Source: Candidatus Aenigmatarchaeota archaeon (GTDB lineage: Archaea > Aenigmatarchaeota > Aenigmatarchaeia > GW2011-AR5). From it: DNA of 64,000 nt. This document shows, piece by piece, positions 3,299 to 41,652 of the stretch. A model generated the notes under the pieces. The model made no database searches, had not been told where the DNA came from, and worked only from the letters and a program-made list of their open reading frames with translations. Both the position numbers and the translations under genes were made by a program. Positions within the stretch are counted from its first letter, which is position 1, and the number at the start of each line of letters is the position of its first letter. The DNA lies in assembly GCA_016187335.1 (NCBI GenBank), contig JACPJW010000001.1, positions 800,001-864,000 of the forward strand, written 5' to 3'.

Positions 3299-3320
3299 AA
3301 TCAGAACCCCTCATATTATT

Positions 3321-3396
3321 TTTGATGAAACTTTTTCTAAAAGTTTCTTTGATGAAACTTTTTCTAAAAGTTTCTTTGATGAAACTTTTTCTAAAA
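3321..3396. repeat. Tandem array (27-nt period, about 2.8 copies) of the hairpin+ATCAAAA motif
   Basis: TTTGATGAAACTTTTTCTAAAAGTTTC at 3321-3347 and 3348-3374, partial copy at 3375-3396; internal palindrome GAAACTTTT-TCT-AAAAGTTTC. Confidence 0.95.
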
Positions 3397-4614
3397 TATT
3401 CCCAGGATTTTTCTTCCGGCTGACTTTATCCTTTCCTCGTAAGCCCTTGATGATTCGTCTTCCTGCTTTTCCTCCTTCAGGACGCTCATCAGGCTGGTTA
3501 TCAGGTTTTCCGTTTCATTCCTGCCAAGCCAAGAAACCTTCATTTTTTCAGAGTTGGCTGAAACGATTTCCATCTCCATCTCTTCCGTGCTTACGTGCTC
3601 TTTCACCAGGATTTCTCCCAGTTCCTTCGAGGTTATCTTCATGTTTTTCTTTACGGAAAGCGCTCCTTTTCCCGCCGCCATAGCGATCACGGGCTTGAGG
3701 TTTATGTCGCTGGTCTTTCCGTCTATGGTTCCTTCAATTTTCATCAGCAGTATCTTCCCCTCGAGGTTTTCTTTCTCGACGGCTTTTTCCGCTTCTTTCT
3801 GTATTTCCGCCGGCATCTTCCCGTCGGCGTTTATTTTTATGATGCACACGTCGCACAGCTTTGCCGAAACCCGCTTCACGGAAACAGGCCCGGGCGGCGT
3901 ATTGCTTGTGTCAAGGTCCACGATGTAAAAGCCGCTGTCATACCTTTCAAGCTCGTGAAAATCCGCGGGAAAAAGAGGACCCGGGAACGCCACGCGGCTC
4001 TTTTCGTCGTAAGAATGGGCATGAATGTGGCCGGATGCGTAATATTCAAAGCCTTTCGGCAGCAGCGATAGCGGTATTCCCGCGCCGAAATTTTCAGGCA
4101 GGTTTTCGGAAATGCCCGAATGAAAAACAAATATTTTCCTGCCCTTTTCGTTTTCAATTCCTCTGTCAAGGTTCTCAAAATACGAGCGCTCCAGGGCGCC
4201 CCTGCGCCCTACTACCCCGCATAATCTGGCGCCGGTTTTCCTGTCCTCGGTGAACTCAAGGAAGATTTTTCCGCCAGCTTCCCTGATTTTTCCTACGTTT
4301 GCCAGCAGCCCCGCGTCCTCAAGGACGTTGAGCATGCTCTTTCCCGTCGGCGAGAAGTCATGAGAGCCCGCTATGGCGTATACATTGATGCCAGCTTCTT
4401 TCAGCCGCCGCAACTCCAGCGCCGCTTTTCTTATTACGTCTATGGAAGGCAGTGACGTGTCAAAGAAGTCGCCAGCAATGATGACAAAATCCACAGCTTC
4501 TTCGATGCACCTGTCAACGGCTTTTTCCCACGCTTTCAGCGGATATTCCCGCAGGTCCGGGTGGTTGTTCCACGAGCCCAGGTGCACGTCAGAAATGTGG
4601 GCAAATCTTGCCAT
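3391..4614 (-). CDS. mre11: Mre11 nuclease (calcineurin-like phosphoesterase)
   Basis: Motifs SDVHLG, AGDFFD, AGSHD, FHSG, SGHIH; directly upstream of rad50. Confidence 0.95.
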   Translation of the reverse strand: MARFAHISDVHLGSWNNHPDLREYPLKAWEKAVDRCIEEAVDFVIIAGDFFDTSLPSIDVIRKAALELRRLKEAGINVYAIAGSHDFSPTGKSMLNVLEDAGLLANVGKIREAGGKIFLEFTEDRKTGARLCGVVGRRGALERSYFENLDRGIENEKGRKIFVFHSGISENLPENFGAGIPLSLLPKGFEYYASGHIHAHSYDEKSRVAFPGPLFPADFHELERYDSGFYIVDLDTSNTPPGPVSVKRVSAKLCDVCIIKINADGKMPAEIQKEAEKAVEKENLEGKILLMKIEGTIDGKTSDINLKPVIAMAAGKGALSVKKNMKITSKELGEILVKEHVSTEEMEMEIVSANSEKMKVSWLGRNETENLITSLMSVLKEEKQEDESSRAYEERIKSAGRKILGIF

Positions 4615-4641: not shown

Positions 4642-4669
4642 ATCTGCAAAGAGCGAAGCTCTTTGCGAT
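4642..4669. repeat. Palindromic module with GCGAAGC core
   Basis: ATCTGCAAAGAGC-GAA-GCTCTTTGCGAT; a near-identical reverse-complement copy lies at about 20220-20248. Confidence 0.8.
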
Positions 4670-15822: not shown

Positions 15823-16092
15823 ATGTCCATGCCCTCGTATAATGAAGTTCATTCAAGGCTGTTGGCTGAATTAGATAGAGAAACCCCTTCTGTGCTTGCG
15901 CAGGGAGTTAGAATGCTTTTAGAAAATCTCCGATTAAGATACCAATTAAAATCTACTGAAGAAAATTTAGAAGGTTACGTATCGGCAATATCCTTAGTAG
16001 AGGAAGCTCTTGGATTGGGACGCCAGAAACAGCATGTCCGTTCAGTCAGGGCAAATAGTCCCGAACCCTATGTATTCCAGCGAACTGGTTGA
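15823..16092 (+). CDS. Hypothetical protein inserted between RPA and PCNA
   Basis: 89-aa AT-richer ORF with 2-nt and 6-nt gaps to its neighbours. Confidence 0.55.
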   Translation: MSMPSYNEVHSRLLAELDRETPSVLAQGVRMLLENLRLRYQLKSTEENLEGYVSAISLVEEALGLGRQKQHVRSVRANSPEPYVFQRTG

Positions 16093-16098
16093 TTAACA

Positions 16099-16842
16099 AT
16101 GTTCTCAGCATCCATAGACGACGTTTCATTGCTCAGGGACAGCATATCGGCTGTGAGCGAGCTCATAGACGAAGTAGAGCTCAGCGTGAAGGCGGGCGGG
16201 CTGAAGATGGTCGCGGCGGACAGGGCAGTTGTTGTCGTGGTTGATTTCTTTCTGAGCAAGGACGCCTTCCGTGAATACAGCTACGAAGAAGACGCCAGGA
16301 TCGGATTAAACCTTGTGAGCTTCCTGCAGATTTTGCGGCGCGCCATGCCAGGGGACAGGCTGAAGCTCAGGCTTGAGGGCAACAAGCTTCATATCGTCTT
16401 GGAAGGGCAGTCCCTGCGCTCATTTGTTCTGCCGCTCATAGACGTGTCGCGCGAGGAAACGCCGCCCCTTGACAAGCTGGCGTTCCCTGCAATCTTTGGG
16501 ATGAGTTCTGATATATTCTCAAGCGGCGTTGACGACGCGGAGCTCGTGGGCGACTCCGTTGTGCTGACGGTAAGGAAGGACAGGTTCACCATGAAAAGCG
16601 AGTCGGATTCGTCCGCAACGCAGCTGGAGATTGTTCCGGGCGAAACATTGCGCGTTGTTGACATAAACGAGCCCGTCCGCGGCAGGTATTCTGTGGACTA
16701 CCTGAAAAAAATACTGAAGGCAAGGAAGCTTTCCGCCAACGTGACGATATCAATGGCATCCGATTACCCCGTCAAGTTCCAGTTCGACGTGCCCGGAAAG
16801 ATGGAGCTGGGCTTCGTCCTCGCGCCGAGGGTTGAGGAATAA
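16099..16842 (+). CDS. pcn: DNA polymerase sliding clamp PCNA
   Basis: ISAVSELIDE, AADRAVVVVVD, YSVDYLKKILKA, C-terminal FVLAPRVEE. Confidence 0.95.
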   Translation: MFSASIDDVSLLRDSISAVSELIDEVELSVKAGGLKMVAADRAVVVVVDFFLSKDAFREYSYEEDARIGLNLVSFLQILRRAMPGDRLKLRLEGNKLHIVLEGQSLRSFVLPLIDVSREETPPLDKLAFPAIFGMSSDIFSSGVDDAELVGDSVVLTVRKDRFTMKSESDSSATQLEIVPGETLRVVDINEPVRGRYSVDYLKKILKARKLSANVTISMASDYPVKFQFDVPGKMELGFVLAPRVEE

Positions 16843-16900
16843 TTACTTTTGCATTATATTTTGTAATAGTCGAATTGAGGCAGTTTGATTTCTTAGGAAA

Positions 16901-17016
16901 ATAACATGCTCTAATATGAACCCACGACTTTAGTCGTGGGTTTTATGTGCATGTTATCCAGAATACGTTGTGTTTTTCCTGAAAGGCAGTTTTCAACGTA
17001 TTCTCGGATAAGCAAG
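16901..17016 (-). mobile_element. Non-autonomous palindromic element, copy A (IS200/IS605-end or REP-like)
   Basis: AACCCACGACTTTAGTCGTGGGTT hairpin at 16919-16942 plus GAATACGTTG...CAACGTATTC nested stem; inverted near-copy at 20123-20298. Confidence 0.7.
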
Positions 17017-17018
17017 AA

Positions 17019-17192
17019 TCAAAGCCTCACGATTTCGTACACTTCTAGTTTGTTTCCAGATATGCGATACAAAAAATATCTCTTGTCAACCTCGACAGGA
17101 TAGAAACGCCCGGGTTTCATTCCCTCCGGCGCTCTTTTTAAAATACGGTGTAATTCAACAGGTCTATGTACGCCAGTGAGCCTCTCATTCAT
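17019..17192 (-). CDS. 57-aa hypothetical protein (not in the ORF track)
   Basis: MNERLTGVHRPVELHRILKRAPEGMKPGRFYPVEVDKRYFLYRISGNKLEVYEIVRL; GGTGA upstream. Confidence 0.5.
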   Translation of the reverse strand: MNERLTGVHRPVELHRILKRAPEGMKPGRFYPVEVDKRYFLYRISGNKLEVYEIVRL

Positions 17193-17248
17193 ATCTTCAC
17201 CGATTTTTTATTTTTTGGGCCTAATAATTATTTAACCTTTTAACCAGT

Positions 17249-17959
17249 TTGTTTCTTATGACAGTAAGGATTCTGACGAGCGATCTGATTACCGTTGAAG
17301 CTGCTCTTCAGAAAGCAAAAACATCAGGATTCAAGAGTTACAGGGATGGAGATTTCAGGAGGTTTGAGGCAGCTGTCAGGGAAGCTGCCATGAAAAATCC
17401 GCACATTGCTCCATGGCTTCTTCCAGCGTATGAACCTCTAAAGAAGAGAGCGAAGAAATATCTTTCTTTAGTTGAGAAAGAATGGGAAGCGCTGGGTTAC
17501 AGGGTGATGGGACAAATCCATGATGTAACAGATGTTACAGGTTACCCTCTGACCGTGTTCACAACCATGCCTGCTCTCAGGGATATTGATGACGGGGATT
17601 ACCTTATTCTGGGCAGTTCAAGAGAATGGTCCGACCCTGTCCTGAGAATATGCCGCACAGCCTTGATGAGAAAAATTAATGGGAAAGATGGCGGGTACGG
17701 GAGAATAAGGCGGGCTGTTGCCGACCTTGTAATGGAGGAAGTGGTTTCAAGGCTTGTTCATCTTACAGCGCTTCCTCATTATTACGGCGTGGAATACCCT
17801 CCTTTCAAAGGCTGCGGAGTCCTGGAAGAATTGAAAATGCAGCTGCTGCCGGAATGGAACGAATTTATTGCTTCCGAAAGAAACGGAAAAAATATTGATG
17901 ATTTTATATCAAGGGCTGAAGAAATTGCTGGCAGAAAAGAGGAACAATACGCCCGTTAA
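17249..17959 (+). CDS. Hypothetical protein
   Basis: 236-aa ORF; no motif recognised. Confidence 0.6.
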   Translation: MFLMTVRILTSDLITVEAALQKAKTSGFKSYRDGDFRRFEAAVREAAMKNPHIAPWLLPAYEPLKKRAKKYLSLVEKEWEALGYRVMGQIHDVTDVTGYPLTVFTTMPALRDIDDGDYLILGSSREWSDPVLRICRTALMRKINGKDGGYGRIRRAVADLVMEEVVSRLVHLTALPHYYGVEYPPFKGCGVLEELKMQLLPEWNEFIASERNGKNIDDFISRAEEIAGRKEEQYAR

Positions 17960-17987
17960 GAAATCTCAGGTTCCACCCAGTCTTTCC

Positions 17988-18203
17988 CTATTTCATCCCC
18001 GCCAGGATTTCCTCGGTTTCCGGGAACCTGCCTTCCTTGTGGCGCGAGAAAACAATCTTGCCGTCAACGTAGACGTCGTAGGTGCCCTTGTCGCCGCCCA
18101 CCAGCTCAACTGAAGCGCCGCTCTTTTCCATCTCTTTCTTCATCGCCTCGGCTCGTGCTATGTGCCCGCACGGGACGCAGTAGACTATTTTGACTTTGTG
18201 CAT
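17988..18203 (-). CDS. Rdx-family (SelW/SelT/SelH-like) thioredoxin-fold protein
   Basis: KIVYCVPCG, GDKGTYDVYVDGKIVFSR...RFPE. Confidence 0.85.
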   Translation of the reverse strand: MHKVKIVYCVPCGHIARAEAMKKEMEKSGASVELVGGDKGTYDVYVDGKIVFSRHKEGRFPETEEILAGMK

Positions 18204-18267
18204 TGAACCACCTAGAATAATCTGATGAAAAAGTTTAAAAGAATGTAGATGTAAGAAACAAGTTAAA

Positions 18268-18531
18268 ATGTACCGAATGATGGCTCCACGTATGCTTGGT
18301 GAATTTTCTTTAGTAACGAATGGCGAAAGAAATCCTTATGACATTGTTGATGATTGTGGGAGGTCTTTGCCATGGCTTGGATACAAAGATGACCCTGATT
18401 GCCCGTGTCCTTTTGGTGGCTCAAGAACTGTCGGTTTAACAATAAATGGAAAGAAACTTGAGGCTTATAAAGCACCAGAGACAAACGGTTTTGTTCGTGA
18501 TGGATGGGGAGATCCGGATTTTGGAGAATAA
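18268..18531 (+). CDS. Hypothetical protein (AT-rich orphan)
   Basis: 87-aa ORF. Confidence 0.45.
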   Translation: MYRMMAPRMLGEFSLVTNGERNPYDIVDDCGRSLPWLGYKDDPDCPCPFGGSRTVGLTINGKKLEAYKAPETNGFVRDGWGDPDFGE

Positions 18532-18535
18532 ATAT

Positions 18536-18994
18536 TTATCCGGTTCGCATCCTGCCGCCTTTGGCGATGCCGTGCTTCTTCACAAAGCCCCCGTTGACTT
18601 CCAGGACGTATTTTGCGGGCTTTGAAACGTAGCGCGGGCATTCAAAGCTTTCACACGGCTCGAAATTTTCTTTTATGTCGACAACCGTCCCGCCGCTGTC
18701 TGCAAAGATAAGGTCTAAAGGAATTAATGTGTTCTTCATCCAGAACGAGCGCGGTGCTTCGTCGCCGTAGATGAAAATCATACCCTGCCCTTCGGGCAAA
18801 GCCTCCCTGAACATCAGGCCCCTTGCCTGCGTTATGGGGTTGTCGGCTATTTCTGCTGTTATGGTTGTCTTGTTTTTTCCGGTTACAGTAACCTGCGTTC
18901 TGCTGTAGGGCAGAATCAGGGCAATGAAAAACAAAACTAGGAAGAAAGCAATCAGGAGCAGAAATAAAATTTTAGGTTCTGACGGGATTAGCAT
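18536..18994 (-). CDS. DUF192-family protein with N-terminal membrane anchor
   Basis: AEIADNPITQARGLMFR, FWMKNTLIPLDLIF, YVLEVNGG. Confidence 0.9.
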   Translation of the reverse strand: MLIPSEPKILFLLLIAFFLVLFFIALILPYSRTQVTVTGKNKTTITAEIADNPITQARGLMFREALPEGQGMIFIYGDEAPRSFWMKNTLIPLDLIFADSGGTVVDIKENFEPCESFECPRYVSKPAKYVLEVNGGFVKKHGIAKGGRMRTG

Positions 18995-19036
18995 GGAAAT
19001 AATTATTGATAGAAAAGAAGAAATAGTCGGTGAAGT

Positions 19037-19498
19037 TCACGCAAACCTTGTCCAGTCGTCGTCTGCTGCCTTCCTCTTTTCCGCGGGCGCAGCGAGCTTC
19101 TTCTGCATCTCGTCGAAGTATTTCTCGTCCGTCTTGAACCTGGGAAAGTGCAGTTCAATGCCGTCGCCTTGGTAGCGCGGTATGATGTGAAAATGGATGT
19201 GTTCCACTATTTGGCCCGCGATGCGGCCGTTGTTCAGCATTACGTTGGTGCCTTCGCAGTTCAGCTTTTCCTTGACGATGTCGTTGACCTTTTTTACGGC
19301 CGTGCCCAGTTTTTCCATTGTTGAAGCGTCAATGTCATGCATGCTGCCAAAGTGCTTCTTCGGCACCACAAGGACGTGCCCCGGGGAAGCGGGGTTTATG
19401 TCAAGGAAAGCTATGTTGTTCTCGTCCTCGTAGACCCTTTTTGAGGGTATCTCGTTCCTTACTATCTTGCAGAAGATGCATTCCTGTGCGGTTACCAT
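19037..19498 (-). CDS. HIT-family hydrolase
   Basis: CIFCKIV, FLDINPASPGHVLVVPKKH, GQIVEHIHFHIIPR. Confidence 0.95.
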   Translation of the reverse strand: MVTAQECIFCKIVRNEIPSKRVYEDENNIAFLDINPASPGHVLVVPKKHFGSMHDIDASTMEKLGTAVKKVNDIVKEKLNCEGTNVMLNNGRIAGQIVEHIHFHIIPRYQGDGIELHFPRFKTDEKYFDEMQKKLAAPAEKRKAADDDWTRFA

Positions 19499-19537
19499 GA
19501 TTATCTATCCTTTGGTTGCATTAATCTAATAATTTAT

Positions 19538-19924
19538 TTAAATCATCACGGTTTCCTTCAAATTTTTGAAATGAGGGTCTCCTGTGACTACCTTTGCCTT
19601 TAATTTCCTCGCAATTGCAAGAACAAAGGCATCAATAAGGACGAAATTCTTCTTCTCTTTTTTTATTTCTGCATGAAGAGATCCAGATTCGGCGCAAATA
19701 TCCTTATCGATATCAAATATTTTTGATAGAAGAGGAATGGTATTGAGGGCCTGTTCGTGGTCGCGATCACGCCGTTTAATAACGCTAACAATCTCTGCCA
19801 TTGTTATCGATGCTGTATAAATTTTGTTTTCCTTATTTTCAACCAGTTTTTTGACATCTTCTCCCTTGGGTGTTCCGTCAAAATATTCCAGCCAAGCGTA
19901 CGCGTCTATTACGTATTTACTCAT
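19538..19924 (-). CDS. vapC: PIN-domain toxin (VapC)
   Basis: YVIDAYAW...EIV...LIDAFVLAIA...VTGDPHF. Confidence 0.9.
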   Translation of the reverse strand: MSKYVIDAYAWLEYFDGTPKGEDVKKLVENKENKIYTASITMAEIVSVIKRRDRDHEQALNTIPLLSKIFDIDKDICAESGSLHAEIKKEKKNFVLIDAFVLAIARKLKAKVVTGDPHFKNLKETVMI

Positions 19925-20117
19925 GCGTATCCAGCTCGTCTTCGGCAGTAAAGGGCCCTATTCCTTTAAGGATTCCGAAACCGCTTACCGGGACTTTCTT
20001 TATTTCTATTTTTACAATCTGACCTTCCCGGATGTTTTCTTCCTTGGCCAAGTCCTTAGGTATCCTGACTACCAGAGAACCACCTACTTTCTTAACCCTT
20101 GATATTGTTTCCATCAA
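19917..20117 (-). CDS. vapB: AbrB/MazE-fold antitoxin (VapB)
   Basis: RVKKVGGSLVVRIPKDLAKEENIREGQIV; overlaps the vapC start. Confidence 0.9.
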   Translation of the reverse strand: MMETISRVKKVGGSLVVRIPKDLAKEENIREGQIVKIEIKKVPVSGFGILKGIGPFTAEDELDTHE

Positions 20118-20122
20118 ATCAC

Positions 20123-20298
20123 CTTGTTATCCGAGAATACGTTGAAAACTGCTGTCTTCAGACAGCAGATGAAACACAACGTATTCTGGATAACATCTTC
20201 AAAAACCAGAGGTTTTTGAGATCTCAAAGAGCTTTGCTCTTTGCAGATGCACATAAAACCCACGACTTTAGTCGTGGGTTCATATTAGAGCATGTTAT
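20123..20298 (+). mobile_element. Non-autonomous palindromic element, copy B, with a 52-nt nested insertion
   Basis: Reverse-complement match to 16901-17016, interrupted by 20197-20248; hairpin at 20257-20280. Confidence 0.7.
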
Positions 20299-20355
20299 AT
20301 TTCAAGTTAACAAAATATAACATAGAATTATATTTAAAGCTTTCTGGATTGCACA

Positions 20356-20670
20356 TTAAAAAACAAGTATCGGCGCTATTATGACAGCGGTGACTAAAAT
20401 GAAGAATATCATGAGCAGGTAGTTGACGTCCCTCACGAAGCCGAAATGCTCCTCGCCTATCTTTCCTGCAAGCTCTGCAATGAATATCGCCAGCGGCACG
20501 AAGCTGTAGATGGTGAAGCCGAATACATACATGTCGGCGTAAAGCCCGTACGAAGCCGAAGGAATGAAGAAGAAGAATATGTCCACGAGCAGGAACACGA
20601 AGTAAGCCGTGAATATGTATAAATAGAGTCTCGGCATGCCCAGCAGCTTTTCAGTCAGGCCTTCAAACAT
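20356..20670 (-). CDS. Small membrane protein
   Basis: 104 aa with three hydrophobic segments. Confidence 0.7.
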   Translation of the reverse strand: MFEGLTEKLLGMPRLYLYIFTAYFVFLLVDIFFFFIPSASYGLYADMYVFGFTIYSFVPLAIFIAELAGKIGEEHFGFVRDVNYLLMIFFILVTAVIIAPILVF

Positions 20671-20717
20671 GATATTAATTTGGCGGGGCGGTTTTAATAT
20701 GTTTAAGGTTTGCGGCC

Positions 20718-21281
20718 TTGCATATCGTCATGCCAAGGCTTGTCGGACTCAGCGGCTATCCGGGAACGGGAAAAAGCCGGGTTGCGGAATATTTGGTTAG
20801 AAACGGCTTTGTGAGGGTTTCCACTGATGAAATGCGCCGGATGCTTTTCGGAAAAGAATGGCCGGAGCTTACTGAAGAAGAAAATATGACAGCATGGATG
20901 GAATGCTACCGCACGAAGCTTAACCTATTGGCTGCTGGTTATAATGTCGTGTTTGATTCAACCGCGCCCACAAATGAAGCAAGAGCCAGTTGGGTTCTGG
21001 GAACAGAAGGACTGCTTTCGGATATTAATGTTGGCAAGTATCTTGTTGTATTGCATACGGACAGGGAGATATTACAAAGAAGGGAAAAGAGGGGAAGAGA
21101 AATGAAATTCTGGGATGAAAAATGGGAAGACCCTTCGCCTGATCTTCCAGCTATTGTCCTGCCTTACATGAGCAACGATGCCTGGGATTATAGAATAATC
21201 TTGCGCGATCTGGAATGGAAGCTCGGGTTGAAAAGTAAAAGTGGGGCCACGAGGAATTTCGGAACTTTCCCTTTTGATTGA
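20718..21281 (+). CDS. P-loop kinase (AAA_33-like)
   Basis: GLSGYPGTGKS, STDEMR, VVFDST. Confidence 0.75.
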   Translation: MHIVMPRLVGLSGYPGTGKSRVAEYLVRNGFVRVSTDEMRRMLFGKEWPELTEEENMTAWMECYRTKLNLLAAGYNVVFDSTAPTNEARASWVLGTEGLLSDINVGKYLVVLHTDREILQRREKRGREMKFWDEKWEDPSPDLPAIVLPYMSNDAWDYRIILRDLEWKLGLKSKSGATRNFGTFPFD

Positions 21282-21487
21282 ACTTTTTGGAAAAGTTCAT
21301 TCGAACCCCGATCAGCGCGTTTCTCCTGTCATCTCGGAATCAAAGCTCCAGTTTTGGTTCTTTCCGTGCACGCTTTCGAAACAGCTGGACGCACGAAGTG
21401 CGTCATTCGACTTCGAAAGGGTGCGCTGGAGCGCGCCATCATAACCATACCCTTTTCCGTTTTGATGGAACTTTTTTGAAAAGTTCC
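21272..21487. ncRNA. Candidate structured non-coding element bracketed by two hairpin+ATCAAAA motifs
   Basis: Nested stems AGCGCG/CGCGCC, GCTCCAG/CTGGAGC, GTGCACGCTTTCGAA/TTCGAAAGGGTGCGC and GACGCAC-GAA-GTGCGTC; motif copies at 21272-21298 and 21460-21487. Confidence 0.45.
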
Positions 21488-21668
21488 AAAGGGTTGCCTG
21501 GTTAGACCATAGCCCCGGATAAGATTTCTTTACGTAGACGCTTTCTTTTAAAGAAAGGGTCTGGGGATAAAAAGATTTGCCGCGCTTGAATTTCTTTTCT
21601 GCTCAAATATTGCAGATGACAAAGCTTTATATAATAATTACTCTATAGTAGTTAAATAGGTAATAATC

Positions 21669-39975: not shown

Positions 39976-40095
39976 CTTTATCTAAGATGAACATTGAAAA
40001 CTTCTGACTTTAGTCAGAAGATGAAACTCAATGTTCATCTGGATCCCATCTTCTCACAAACCACCGACTTTAGTCGGTGGTATACAAAGAAGATG
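39976..40095 (+). mobile_element. Palindromic element, copy C (diverged, compensatory changes)
   Basis: Same architecture as copy B; hairpins CTTCTGACTTTAGTCAGAAG (40001-40020) and ACCACCGACTTTAGTCGGTGGT (40060-40081). Confidence 0.7.
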
Positions 40096-40322
40096 TGATA
40101 CATATGCGTGAAAGACGAGGTAAATACAGAAAACTTCGTGCCCCGGAACAGATGGAACTTTTCCTGGAATTTCCGGAAAGACCGCTCTGGGAAGAAGAAT
40201 GAAATCTGCAGGAAAGCCCGGAAGACGCCTTCAAAACTTTCAGAAAGTTATCAGAAACGCAGGACGGATTCGGGCTTGGCGCACATTAAAAACTTTCTTT
40301 CATTAATTCTATTGGTCATTCT

Positions 40323-41120
40323 ATGCCCTCCGTCGAAGAAGTCATCAAAGCCGAGCGCGACAAAAGGATGCTCCAGCAGAAGGAGCGCGTTGCCGAGAAC
40401 CTGAAAGGCGTCAAGCGCCGCATTGCAGTGATGTCCGGCAAGGGCGGCGTGGGCAAGACCACTGTGGCAGTGAATATAGCGGCGCTTTTGGCTGAGAAGC
40501 ACAAAGTAGGCCTTTTTGACATTGACATTGACTGCCCGAACGTCGGGAAATTTTTGGGCATAACGGAAAAGGTGAGCGTGGACGCCGGCAACAGGATAAA
40601 TCCCATAGAGAAGCACGGCATGAAGGTTTTGTCCATGGCTTTCCTGCAGGGCGACGAGAAGCAGTCAGTGATATGGCGCGGGCCCATCATAAGCAACGCT
40701 ATATTGCAGTTCATGGAAAAAACAAACTGGGGCGATCTGGATTATCTGTTCTGCGACATGCCCCCTGGGACTTCGGACGCTGCCCTTACAATGATTCAGC
40801 TGGTCGGCATAGACGCTGCCCTGATTGTCTCGACGCCGCAGACAGCAGCGATAACGGATGCAAGGAAAGCAATAGACATGTGCAGGCATATGGCTGTGCC
40901 TGTTCTTGGAATCGTCGAGAACATGTCCGGGTTTTTCGGCAGCAGGATCGAGCAGATCGCAAAGGAAGAAGGCATTCATTTTTTAGGGAGCATTGAGCTG
41001 AGAAAAGATATTGCCGAGCTTTCCGACCTTGGGCTGCTGCCCGTCAAGGAAAGCGCAGAGGCGCGCAGGATTTTCGAGGAAATTTTAAACAACTTTCCTG
41101 ATGAATACAAGGTGAAGTAA
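40323..41120 (+). CDS. apbC: Mrp/NBP35 (ApbC) Fe-S cluster carrier ATPase
   Basis: MSGKGGVGKT, DIDIDCP, WRGP, DMPPGTSD, STPQ, GIVENMS. Confidence 0.92.
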   Translation: MPSVEEVIKAERDKRMLQQKERVAENLKGVKRRIAVMSGKGGVGKTTVAVNIAALLAEKHKVGLFDIDIDCPNVGKFLGITEKVSVDAGNRINPIEKHGMKVLSMAFLQGDEKQSVIWRGPIISNAILQFMEKTNWGDLDYLFCDMPPGTSDAALTMIQLVGIDAALIVSTPQTAAITDARKAIDMCRHMAVPVLGIVENMSGFFGSRIEQIAKEEGIHFLGSIELRKDIAELSDLGLLPVKESAEARRIFEEILNNFPDEYKVK

Positions 41121-41121
41121 T

Positions 41122-41652
41122 ATCAATTGGAGAACAGTAGAAAGGCCTGGTCAGTTCGGAAAGAAAAGAGAAGAAATTTTTCGCGATTATGAGTCAAGAT
41201 ACGGCAGTGGCAACTATCGCATAGTATGGCAATGGAGTGGAATTGTTGTTCCTTATGAAATCGCCTCTCACTTATACGAAGACGGATTTTACTGGGATTC
41301 CATAAGACGTGAAAAATTGTGGAGAAATCTTTTGTAGGAAGCGAGGAATGTCTACGATAATCAGGAAAGCGATGTTGAGTCAGGACTGATTTATCCTCCG
41401 TTTGAAGCAGCTACTCATTTACACGACATATCGATAAGGCGCGTCATTCTGAGAAGGGGCTGGAAATTCGAAGGTGACAAATTAGTCCAGATAAAAAGTC
41501 ATAGCGATTGGAAAGCTCTGAGCCCTGGGAGGGTTCGTTTCCATCTGCCGGAATTAATCGTAGACCCTCACTTGAAAGTGTGGTGGGATTATGATTCTAT
41601 CGAGGATTTTTACCAGAGTAATAAGCTTCTGCAGGTTAGGGTATCCCACTAA
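41122..41652 (+). pseudogene. Interrupted 176-codon hypothetical gene (ATC start, in-frame TAG)
   Basis: AGGTGA 6 nt before ATC; NWRTVERPGQFGKKR...LWRNLL*EARNVYDN...DFYQSNKLLQVRVSH; TAG at 41335-41337. Confidence 0.7.

Follow-up and report, generated by a model that had tools for sequence, protein, structure and literature searches.

A double-hairpin repeat of Aenigmatarchaeota with covarying stems and a guide/cleavage-site code, probably a PATE-like non-autonomous derivative of IS200/IS605 transposons

A repeat with long, nearly perfect stems occurs three times (copies A, B and C) in a stretch of 64,000 nucleotides of an Aenigmatarchaeota genome, which is called here the window. Its stems change together from copy to copy, and the question raised by copy C is whether such a pattern denotes an RNA gene or a piece of mobile DNA. 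The earlier note on this sequence had left both candidates standing, an HUH-mobilised non-autonomous element and a structured noncoding RNA, and had considered the repeat the strongest candidate for an undescribed system in the window. The genome that hosts the window has 1.01 Mb in two contigs, with 47% G+C, and is 91% complete; the nearest relatives of its PCNA gene were found in Candidatus Aenigmatarchaeota MAGs from groundwater.

Each of the two hairpins of copy C (Table 1) is formed by a lower stem, an asymmetric internal loop, an 8-bp upper stem and a loop of 4 nt, and the two are joined through GATC. Within the lower stem of hairpin 1 lie the guide, the upper hairpin and the conserved stretch on its 3' side; the closing pairs of hairpin 2 are formed by 40043-40045 with 40097-40099. 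The tetranucleotide TTAT is located 19 nt from the left hairpin foot in copy C and 18 nt in most copies. Without nested pieces the element measured 117-123 nt. The complete 122-nt copy C folded as ssDNA with z = -9.2; both element strands folded equally well (z about -9 to -10), and the energy does not separate them. All the stem pairs quoted by the earlier note were present in the sequence, and copy C was found where it had been located, but it runs 4 nt further, to 40099. Two of the supposedly unpaired linkers required revision. CATCTTC is in copy C the 5' arm of the lower stem of hairpin 2 (40047-40054), and it is not a fixed linker either, the same letters arising in copy B at the edge of the nested insertion; TGGAT is unpaired only in part, the other part pairing at the base of both hairpins. 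A 32-codon open reading frame at window 40105-40203 (+), whose start lies 5 nt after copy C, showed no sign of being a gene.

Table 1. Features of copy C, the other copies of the element in the window and a second repeat family; positions are those of the window unless a genome and contig are named
Feature	Position	Strand	Remarks
Copy C including TTAT	39978-40099	+	122 nt, two adjacent two-tier hairpins
Copy C, element body	39982-40099	+	R1 126.8 bits, E 1e-22 to 1e-23
Putative target/left cleavage tetranucleotide TTAT (C_L)	39978-39981	+	flank rather than element, by analogy with IS608
Hairpin 1, left-end module	39986-40039	+	lower stem 39986-39996 with 40029-40039
Left guide AAAA (G_L)	39997-40000	+	directly 5' of upper-stem foot
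Left subterminal palindrome (IP_L)	40001-40020	+	8-bp stem, TTTA loop
Conserved unpaired stretch 3' of IP_L foot	40021-40028	+	kept in copies and in autonomous left ends as (G/A)ATGAA
Hairpin 2, right-end module	40043-40099	+	lower stem 40047-40054 with 40088-40095
Right guide CAAA (G_R)	40057-40060	+	covaries with last four bases of element
Right subterminal palindrome (IP_R)	40061-40080	+	8-bp stem, TTTA loop
Putative right cleavage tetranucleotide TGAT (C_R)	40096-40099	+	last bases of element, 15 nt 3' of IP_R foot
Copy B	20127-20298	+	52-nt nested insertion at 20197-20248
Copy A	16901-17011	-	R1 84.8 bits; upper stem of hairpin 1 partly deleted
Second family, ~133 nt	G000:C2 66272-66404, 128122-128253, 511761-511868		outside window
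Second family, ~133 nt	G000:C2 606633-606765, 617137-617214, 723543-723675		outside window

The search of the host genome with a covariance model of the element (R1) gave 7 full copies and confirmed that A, B and C belong to one repeat family. Copy B and copy D (C2:127954-128125), which lie 690 kb apart, were 98% identical, nested insertion included, and their homology stopped at the element borders. A 10-mer from the lower stem of copy B occurred 4 times in the window against 0.08 expected. The 52-nt insertion shared by B and D (C2:128003-128058 in the latter) sits after ...ACAT and ends ...AGAT; its two small hairpins both have ATC...GAT as their boundaries, and a shared GATC connects them in the way that hairpins 1 and 2 of the element are connected. 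The second of these small hairpins is also found alone, for example at window 4642-4669.

The compensatory change observed between B and C proved real in a larger alignment (A1) of 36 copies from 6 genomes. RNAalifold, with no structure supplied, predicted 38 pairs in four helices, and both-sided changes were observed in 27 of the 38: 10 of 12 pairs in helix 1 (lower stem of hairpin 1), 6 of 8 in helix 2 (IP_L), 5 of 10 in helix 3 (lower stem of hairpin 2) and 6 of 8 in helix 4 (IP_R). The bases of the paired cells were able to pair in 98.3% of cases, against 79.5% after shuffling and 31-44% when the partners were slid by 1-3 columns, and none of 500 shuffles reached the observed covariation. 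Among 75 intact copies there were 31 distinct arms of the first upper stem, 21 of the second upper stem and 37 of the lower stem. We propose that the stems covary because pairing, and not sequence, matters. T.G wobbles were frequent at three positions and A.C mismatches were singletons (79 versus 27 cells); the top strand is marked by this modest excess together with the guide code described below, and by these alone.

Across the order, R1 at E<=1e-5 detected more than 360 copies in 32 of the 70 genomes of the order, with matches in 27 of the 43 genomes of the same family. The number of copies reached 33 per genome of about 1 Mb, and presence or absence varied within genera. In two species of one genus some copies were 100% identical, against 93% in a flanking stretch, and near-identical copies were also seen across genera. 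Hairpin-1 and hairpin-2 subtypes occurred in all combinations. In 77 aligned copies the homology ended abruptly at both borders and the flanks were unrelated. A target duplication was sought in these copies and flank-to-flank identity was at chance level (k=2, 6 of 77 versus 4.8 expected); the target equalled the last 4 nt of the element in only 5 of the 77. Inverted terminal repeats were absent as well: the bases after TTAT are unrelated to the reverse complement of the last bases, and the pairing of each end is confined to its own hairpin, not to the opposite end. This dispersed and sharply bounded repeat behaves as a mobile element and not as a conserved gene.

The comparison of orthologous loci among relatives gave no clean pair of filled and empty sites. 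Three loci lacking the element also differ in their neighbouring genes; in the PCNA locus of the sister genome (L001) copy A is absent and so are two open reading frames, and in the Mrp-ATPase locus of G001 the upstream gene differs. Between G053:C18 and G015:C4:267925 the homology begins exactly at the 3' end of the element and the left flanks are unrelated, while the flanks of another copy of G015 (L030) had no match in the sister genomes G053 and G054. Contigs of four public groundwater runs, compared with window 16000-21500, break at the repeats and provided no joint across A or B. Copies A and B are inverted around a segment of 3.1 kb (window 16901-20298) with two orphan open reading frames, Rdx, DUF192, HIT and a PIN/MazE-type pair; in the sister genome PCNA leads directly to Rdx, and the host genome has about 1.15 kb more, made of copy A and the open reading frames at 17019-17959.

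What fixes the unpaired segments while the stems vary can be approached by comparison with IS608. Its left site, TTAC, belongs to the flank and precedes the foot of the left hairpin by 19 nt, and its right site, TCAA, is inside the element, 3' of the right hairpin and 10 nt from the foot; both are recognised by a 4-nt guide located directly 5' of the hairpin foot, and not by the protein (PMC3201880). Base 1 of the guide pairs with position -3 of the site and base 2 with -4 (PMC5934647). A further pairing, of guide base 4 with -1, is suggested by our own comparison of both IS608 guides with their sites (AAAG with TTAC, GAAT with TCAA). The bases 3' of the hairpin foot form triplets with the guide (PMC3201880, PMC5934647).

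The same arrangement was recognisable in the element. TTAT preceded 72 of the 77 aligned copies, TAAT or TGAT the remainder; the left guide was AAAA in 72 copies, and TTAT and AAAA stood together in 68 of the 77. In one copy with the left guide CAAA (L105) the target was TGAT. At the right end, guide and terminus were CAAA-TGAT in 33 copies, GAAA-TCAT in 30 and AAAA-TTAT in 3, copy A having the AAAA-TTAT version, which arose on two different lower-stem backgrounds. All of these versions obey the pairing rule of IS608, and in two copies (L112, L113) the guide pairing was kept though the stem partner was mismatched. With the autonomous relatives included, nine guide/site settings, representing eight different pairs, follow the code. 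Two deep subfamilies carry most of the covariation between guide and site, so the independent switches are few (at least 3). By analogy, these results support the view that the fixed linkers correspond to the 4-nt guides and to the bases next to the hairpin foot in ends of the IS608 type. Of the linkers quoted in the earlier note, TTGAAAACT includes the left guide and AGATGAAAC corresponds to the conserved bases that follow the IP_L foot on its 3' side. The family thus constitutes a natural data set of jointly changed DNA guide and cleavage site, a principle that has been exploited to retarget IS608 in the laboratory (PMC5934647).

Autonomous relatives were obtained by searching with two transposase genes of related genomes, which located 45 Y1 transposase loci in DPANN and other archaea. 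Their left end consists of TTAG or TTAA, about 16 nt, a guide AAAC or AAAT, a hairpin and (G/A)ATGAA, and it is enclosed by a lower stem with compensatory change between loci; at the right end the guide GAAA and a hairpin are followed by a terminal TCAT that pairs with sequence upstream. The guide/site pairs of these elements were TTAG-AAAC, TTAA-AAAT, TCAT-GAAA and TTAA-AATT. The IP_L core of B-type copies was near-identical to the left-end hairpin of one of them, L129, from an Aenigmatarchaeota MAG (JAFCEK010000007.1), whose left hairpin and flanks are almost identical to B-type hairpin 1; the guide of L129 is one base off (AAAC versus AAAA) and its target shifts to match (TTAG versus TTAT). 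IP_R resembles the right-end hairpins just downstream of tnpA in L066, L067, L068 and L120-L132. None of the loci examined was an autonomous element with an exact TTAT/AAAA left end. A core-deleted copy, about 70 nt long (L180, G042:C30), was located about 200 nt upstream of a tnpA gene; its left and right upper hairpins are recombined into one, and TTAT, the left arm and the right terminus are retained. A second IS200-type subtype, whose guide AATT goes with the site TTAA, is found in the genome G015, where at least 3 copies lie at contig ends (L070-L072, L074-L076). As a parent of the element we rejected both this multi-copy insertion sequence and a decayed tnpA of G014, which are of this other subtype (AATT/TTAA).

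Since the autonomous IS200-type ends share the plan of the element, we read the latter as the two ends, left and right, of this group of insertion sequences joined to each other, and copy C is probably a PATE-like non-autonomous IS200/IS605 derivative. The observations that speak for it are the homology to autonomous IS200-type ends, the guide code, the anatomy, the covariation, the multi-copy spread with sharp borders and the missing inverted terminal repeats and target duplications. In this respect the first candidate of the earlier note, a non-autonomous element formed from IS200/IS605 ends, agreed with anatomy, code and shared hairpin cores, and its mobilisation by an HUH enzyme would follow from the likeness to IS608. 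A description of the repeat as an undescribed system overstates its novelty, because transposase-free elements with IS605 ends, the PATEs, have already been described in haloarchaea (PMC3119063).

By the same analogy, both upper hairpins of the single-stranded top strand would be bound by TnpA, a Y1 HUH transposase acting as a dimer and provided in trans. The four bases 5' of each hairpin foot would act as DNA guides pairing with the cleavage tetranucleotides; these would be the TTAT of the left flank and the T-N-A-T with which the element ends on its 3' side. The element would be excised as a single-stranded circle, and this circle would be pasted 3' of another TTAT with no target duplication. 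Cleavage, the identity of the transposase, the active strand and the present mobility of the host-genome copies are thus what we infer from IS608. Against this model, the upper stems are perfect 8-bp helices, while the hairpins of IS608 are imperfect and have an extrahelical base; the autonomous relatives L120 and L129 have one mismatch or wobble in the upper stem. The long lower stems, which are inherited from the ends of autonomous elements, would sequester the cleavage sites in duplex, and the IS608 model assigns no role to them.

A key aspect is the source of the transposase. The co-occurrence with tnpA, tnpB or RAYT genes contemplated in the earlier note did not appear: neither a Y1 transposase (PF01797, the Pfam family of both tnpA and RAYT) nor TnpB (PF07282) was found in the host genome, and the element did not track these genes among related genomes. 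Of 41 relatives, 11-12 had tnpA; element and tnpA occurred together in 5, tnpA only in 7, the element only in 11 and neither in 18 (odds ratio 1.2), and there was no association with tnpB. Of five further copy-rich genomes three had tnpA, two of them of the related subtype, and the copy-rich G004, G005, G018 and G060 gave no tnpA. The profile of Y2/IS91 transposases (PF04986) had no match in five genomes, nor in any control genome, and is hence uninformative. With no TnpA detectable in the host genome, the 7 copies may be relics or may need an enzyme from outside the assembly.

It is unlikely that the elements are now mobile in or between DPANN genomes that have no Y1 enzyme, served by an enzyme that is either external (from a host cell, a virus or a neighbouring strain) or unrecognised. 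If this were true, the almost fully paired "dumbbell" fold would be an adaptation that stabilises the single-stranded circle for transfer, and the three versions in which guide and terminus match would represent natural cases of retargeting in a transposon guided by DNA. Some Aenigmatarchaeota genomes hold dozens of copies in about 1 Mb of otherwise streamlined DNA, and transposase-free copies are near-identical across species and genera of obligate symbionts.

That no tnpA was found in the host genome or in G004, G005, G018 and G060, together with the missing association, is also what would be expected if an unrecognised enzyme other than Y1 moved the element and the likeness to IS200/IS605 ends were ancestral or convergent; the insertion of small ATC...GAT-bounded hairpin modules into the element points the same way. 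We consider this quite unlikely, however, because the guide/site code is specific to the IS200/IS605 mechanism and holds in all nine settings. Moreover, these assemblies reach a completeness of 56-97%, and insertion sequences are a cause of assembly breaks; three contig ends of G015 bear tnpA, so the gene is easily lost from such assemblies.

A domesticated repeat of the REP/BIME kind would account for several features of the genome; its hairpins would serve the host, for instance as terminators, stabilisers of mRNA or protein-binding sites, and recombination or an enzyme of the RAYT type would have spread them. The host-genome copies are all intergenic and frequently stand directly after stop codons, the free combination of hairpin subtypes is like that of BIME mosaics, and the self-comparison of the host genome showed at least 144 loci of short modular hairpin repeats in one network, with modules shared with the element. 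Nevertheless, this explanation is very unlikely: no RAYT or Y1 gene was found in the host genome, the hairpin cores are homologous to autonomous IS200-type ends, and REPs lack the fixed two-end architecture, the target tetranucleotide and the IS-type guides.

The repeat that occurs most often in the host genome is not the element but another one, a short perfect hairpin that carries a fixed tail and whose commonest 16-mers have 13-21 copies; in the window it is present at 3310-3401, 21262-21299 and 21450-21487. A second family of about 133 nt (Table 1) shares the right-hand upper hairpin of the element, preceded by a different 10-bp hairpin, and its R1 scores are weak (21-36 bits). One copy of this family abuts copy D, and another starts 3 nt after an intron-bearing tRNA-Pro gene.

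The other candidate of the earlier note was RNA, that is, a multi-copy structured noncoding RNA or a cis-acting RNA module of untranslated regions whose fold is under RNA-level selection. The very strong covariation in all four helices agrees with it, the tolerance of T.G above A.C fits one functional strand, and 6 of the 7 host-genome copies could be co-directional with a neighbouring gene, a set too small for an orientation test against transcription or replication. Even so, an RNA is highly improbable. Orientation to genes is mixed, copy B being antisense to both adjacent genes, and the copies along G015:C4 are also mixed in orientation. There is no promoter-like sequence common to the copies, whose flanks are unrelated; the patchy presence within genera is unlike that of a conserved RNA gene, and the inverted hairpin loops described below are a DNA-level event. 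The guide/terminus code and a TTAT placed outside the fold would be meaningless for an RNA gene, but they are meaningful for DNA ends of the IS608 type.

The search against Rfam gave 0 matches at threshold in the window. Below threshold the best was psRNA14 (33-35 bits against a cut-off of 60); this family (RF02351) scored 29-35 bits at window 40014-40093 (-) and at L024, L025 and L029, which is probably chance or a shared hairpin type. On their consensus features, C/D-box and H/ACA RNAs were rejected for want of box or K-turn arrangements, and the hairpin ribozyme because the loop resemblance is split over two hairpins; Rfam gave nothing at threshold for them. ARAGORN called no tRNA in the window. 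With introns allowed it made 23 calls genome-wide, most with introns of 9-477 nt; none of the 7 copies overlaps a tRNA gene, which sets them apart from BHB-intron hairpin repeats. One of these calls, at window 40434-41553 with an intron of 1022 nt, overlaps the gene of a Mrp-type ATPase and is likely to be spurious. For annotation, the element is a warning that strongly covarying stems in a multi-copy hairpin repeat need not indicate an RNA gene.

Least probable of all is that the repeats are merely decaying palindromic DNA whose perfect stems are by-products of template switching: loop inversions (TTTA/TAAA, TTCA/TGAA) do recur in hairpin 1 (4 of 75 copies) and hairpin 2 (7 of 75), the stems are almost always perfect with few one-sided intermediates, and both strands fold equally well as ssDNA, but the sharp borders, the copy number, the near-identity across genera, the fixed unpaired guides and their pairing with sites outside the stems are left unexplained. 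The repeated inversions suggest that template switching within the palindromes helps to maintain perfect stems, and we take it for a mechanism that contributes rather than for a competing explanation.

Taking the element as a PATE-like derivative of IS200/IS605 ends, its place among known systems can be described as follows. A classical MITE of the DDE transposase type was rejected, both terminal inverted repeats and target-site duplication being absent. REP/BIME repeats with their RAYTs, and the "Nezha"-type double-hairpin MITEs of cyanobacteria, are likewise short intergenic hairpin repeats related to IS200/IS605 ends and found in mosaic arrangements; REPs, in contrast, are single short hairpins with a conserved 5' tetranucleotide, tied to a resident RAYT gene.

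In the element, as in IS608 and ISDra2 (IS200/IS605 family; Barabas, Ton-Hoang, Chandler, Dyda and co-workers), a T-N-A-N target stands on the 5' side of the left end at about 19 nt from the hairpin foot, the right cleavage site falls within the element and 3' of the right hairpin, N-A-A-N guides of 4 nt occupy the 5' feet (G1:-3, G2:-4, G4:-1 in the predicted pairing), and the bases 3' of the foot are conserved. It differs from both in having neither tnpA nor tnpB between its ends, and from IS608 in that the right site is 15 nt from the foot instead of 10 and that extra lower stems enclose guide and site. The IS200-type elements of DPANN (L129, L120-L128) come closer, sharing the succession of target, 16 nt, guide, hairpin and (G/A)ATGAA within a compensatory lower stem; the autonomous ones, however, carry a gene for a Y1 transposase of 143-145 aa, of which none was found in the host genome, and their left guides are AAAC/AAAT with TTAG/TTAA instead of AAAA with TTAT.

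The best comparison is with the PATEs, the palindrome-associated transposable elements of Haloquadratum walsbyi and other haloarchaea (Dyall-Smith et al. 2011, PMC3119063). The element is likened to these families by their described features and not by sequence similarity. Like PATEs (PMC3119063), it is too short for a transposase gene and lacks inverted terminal repeats as well as a target duplication; its 117-123 nt are almost fully base-paired. Its near-terminal palindromes are related to IS605-type transposons, here matched in the ends of DPANN IS200-type elements, and a short targeting oligonucleotide stands on the 5' side. Homogeneous and heterogeneous subfamilies are both present. Insertions of other small repeats are frequent in PATEs, and nested pieces occur in the element likewise; deletion of the core by recombination between the two palindromes is known in them (PMC3119063) and is seen in L180, which resembles the "terminal-only" PATEs of Haloquadratum. 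PATEs and the element also occur where IS200-type transposase genes are broken or absent. What distinguishes the present family is its host, DPANN Aenigmatarchaeota of groundwater with genomes of about 1 Mb; its two-tier ends with a long covarying lower stem, so that nearly all of the 120 nt are paired; and the occurrence of the right guide and terminal tetranucleotide in three matched versions. By this comparison a covarying, RNA-like repeat becomes an annotated mobile-element family for Aenigmatarchaeota.
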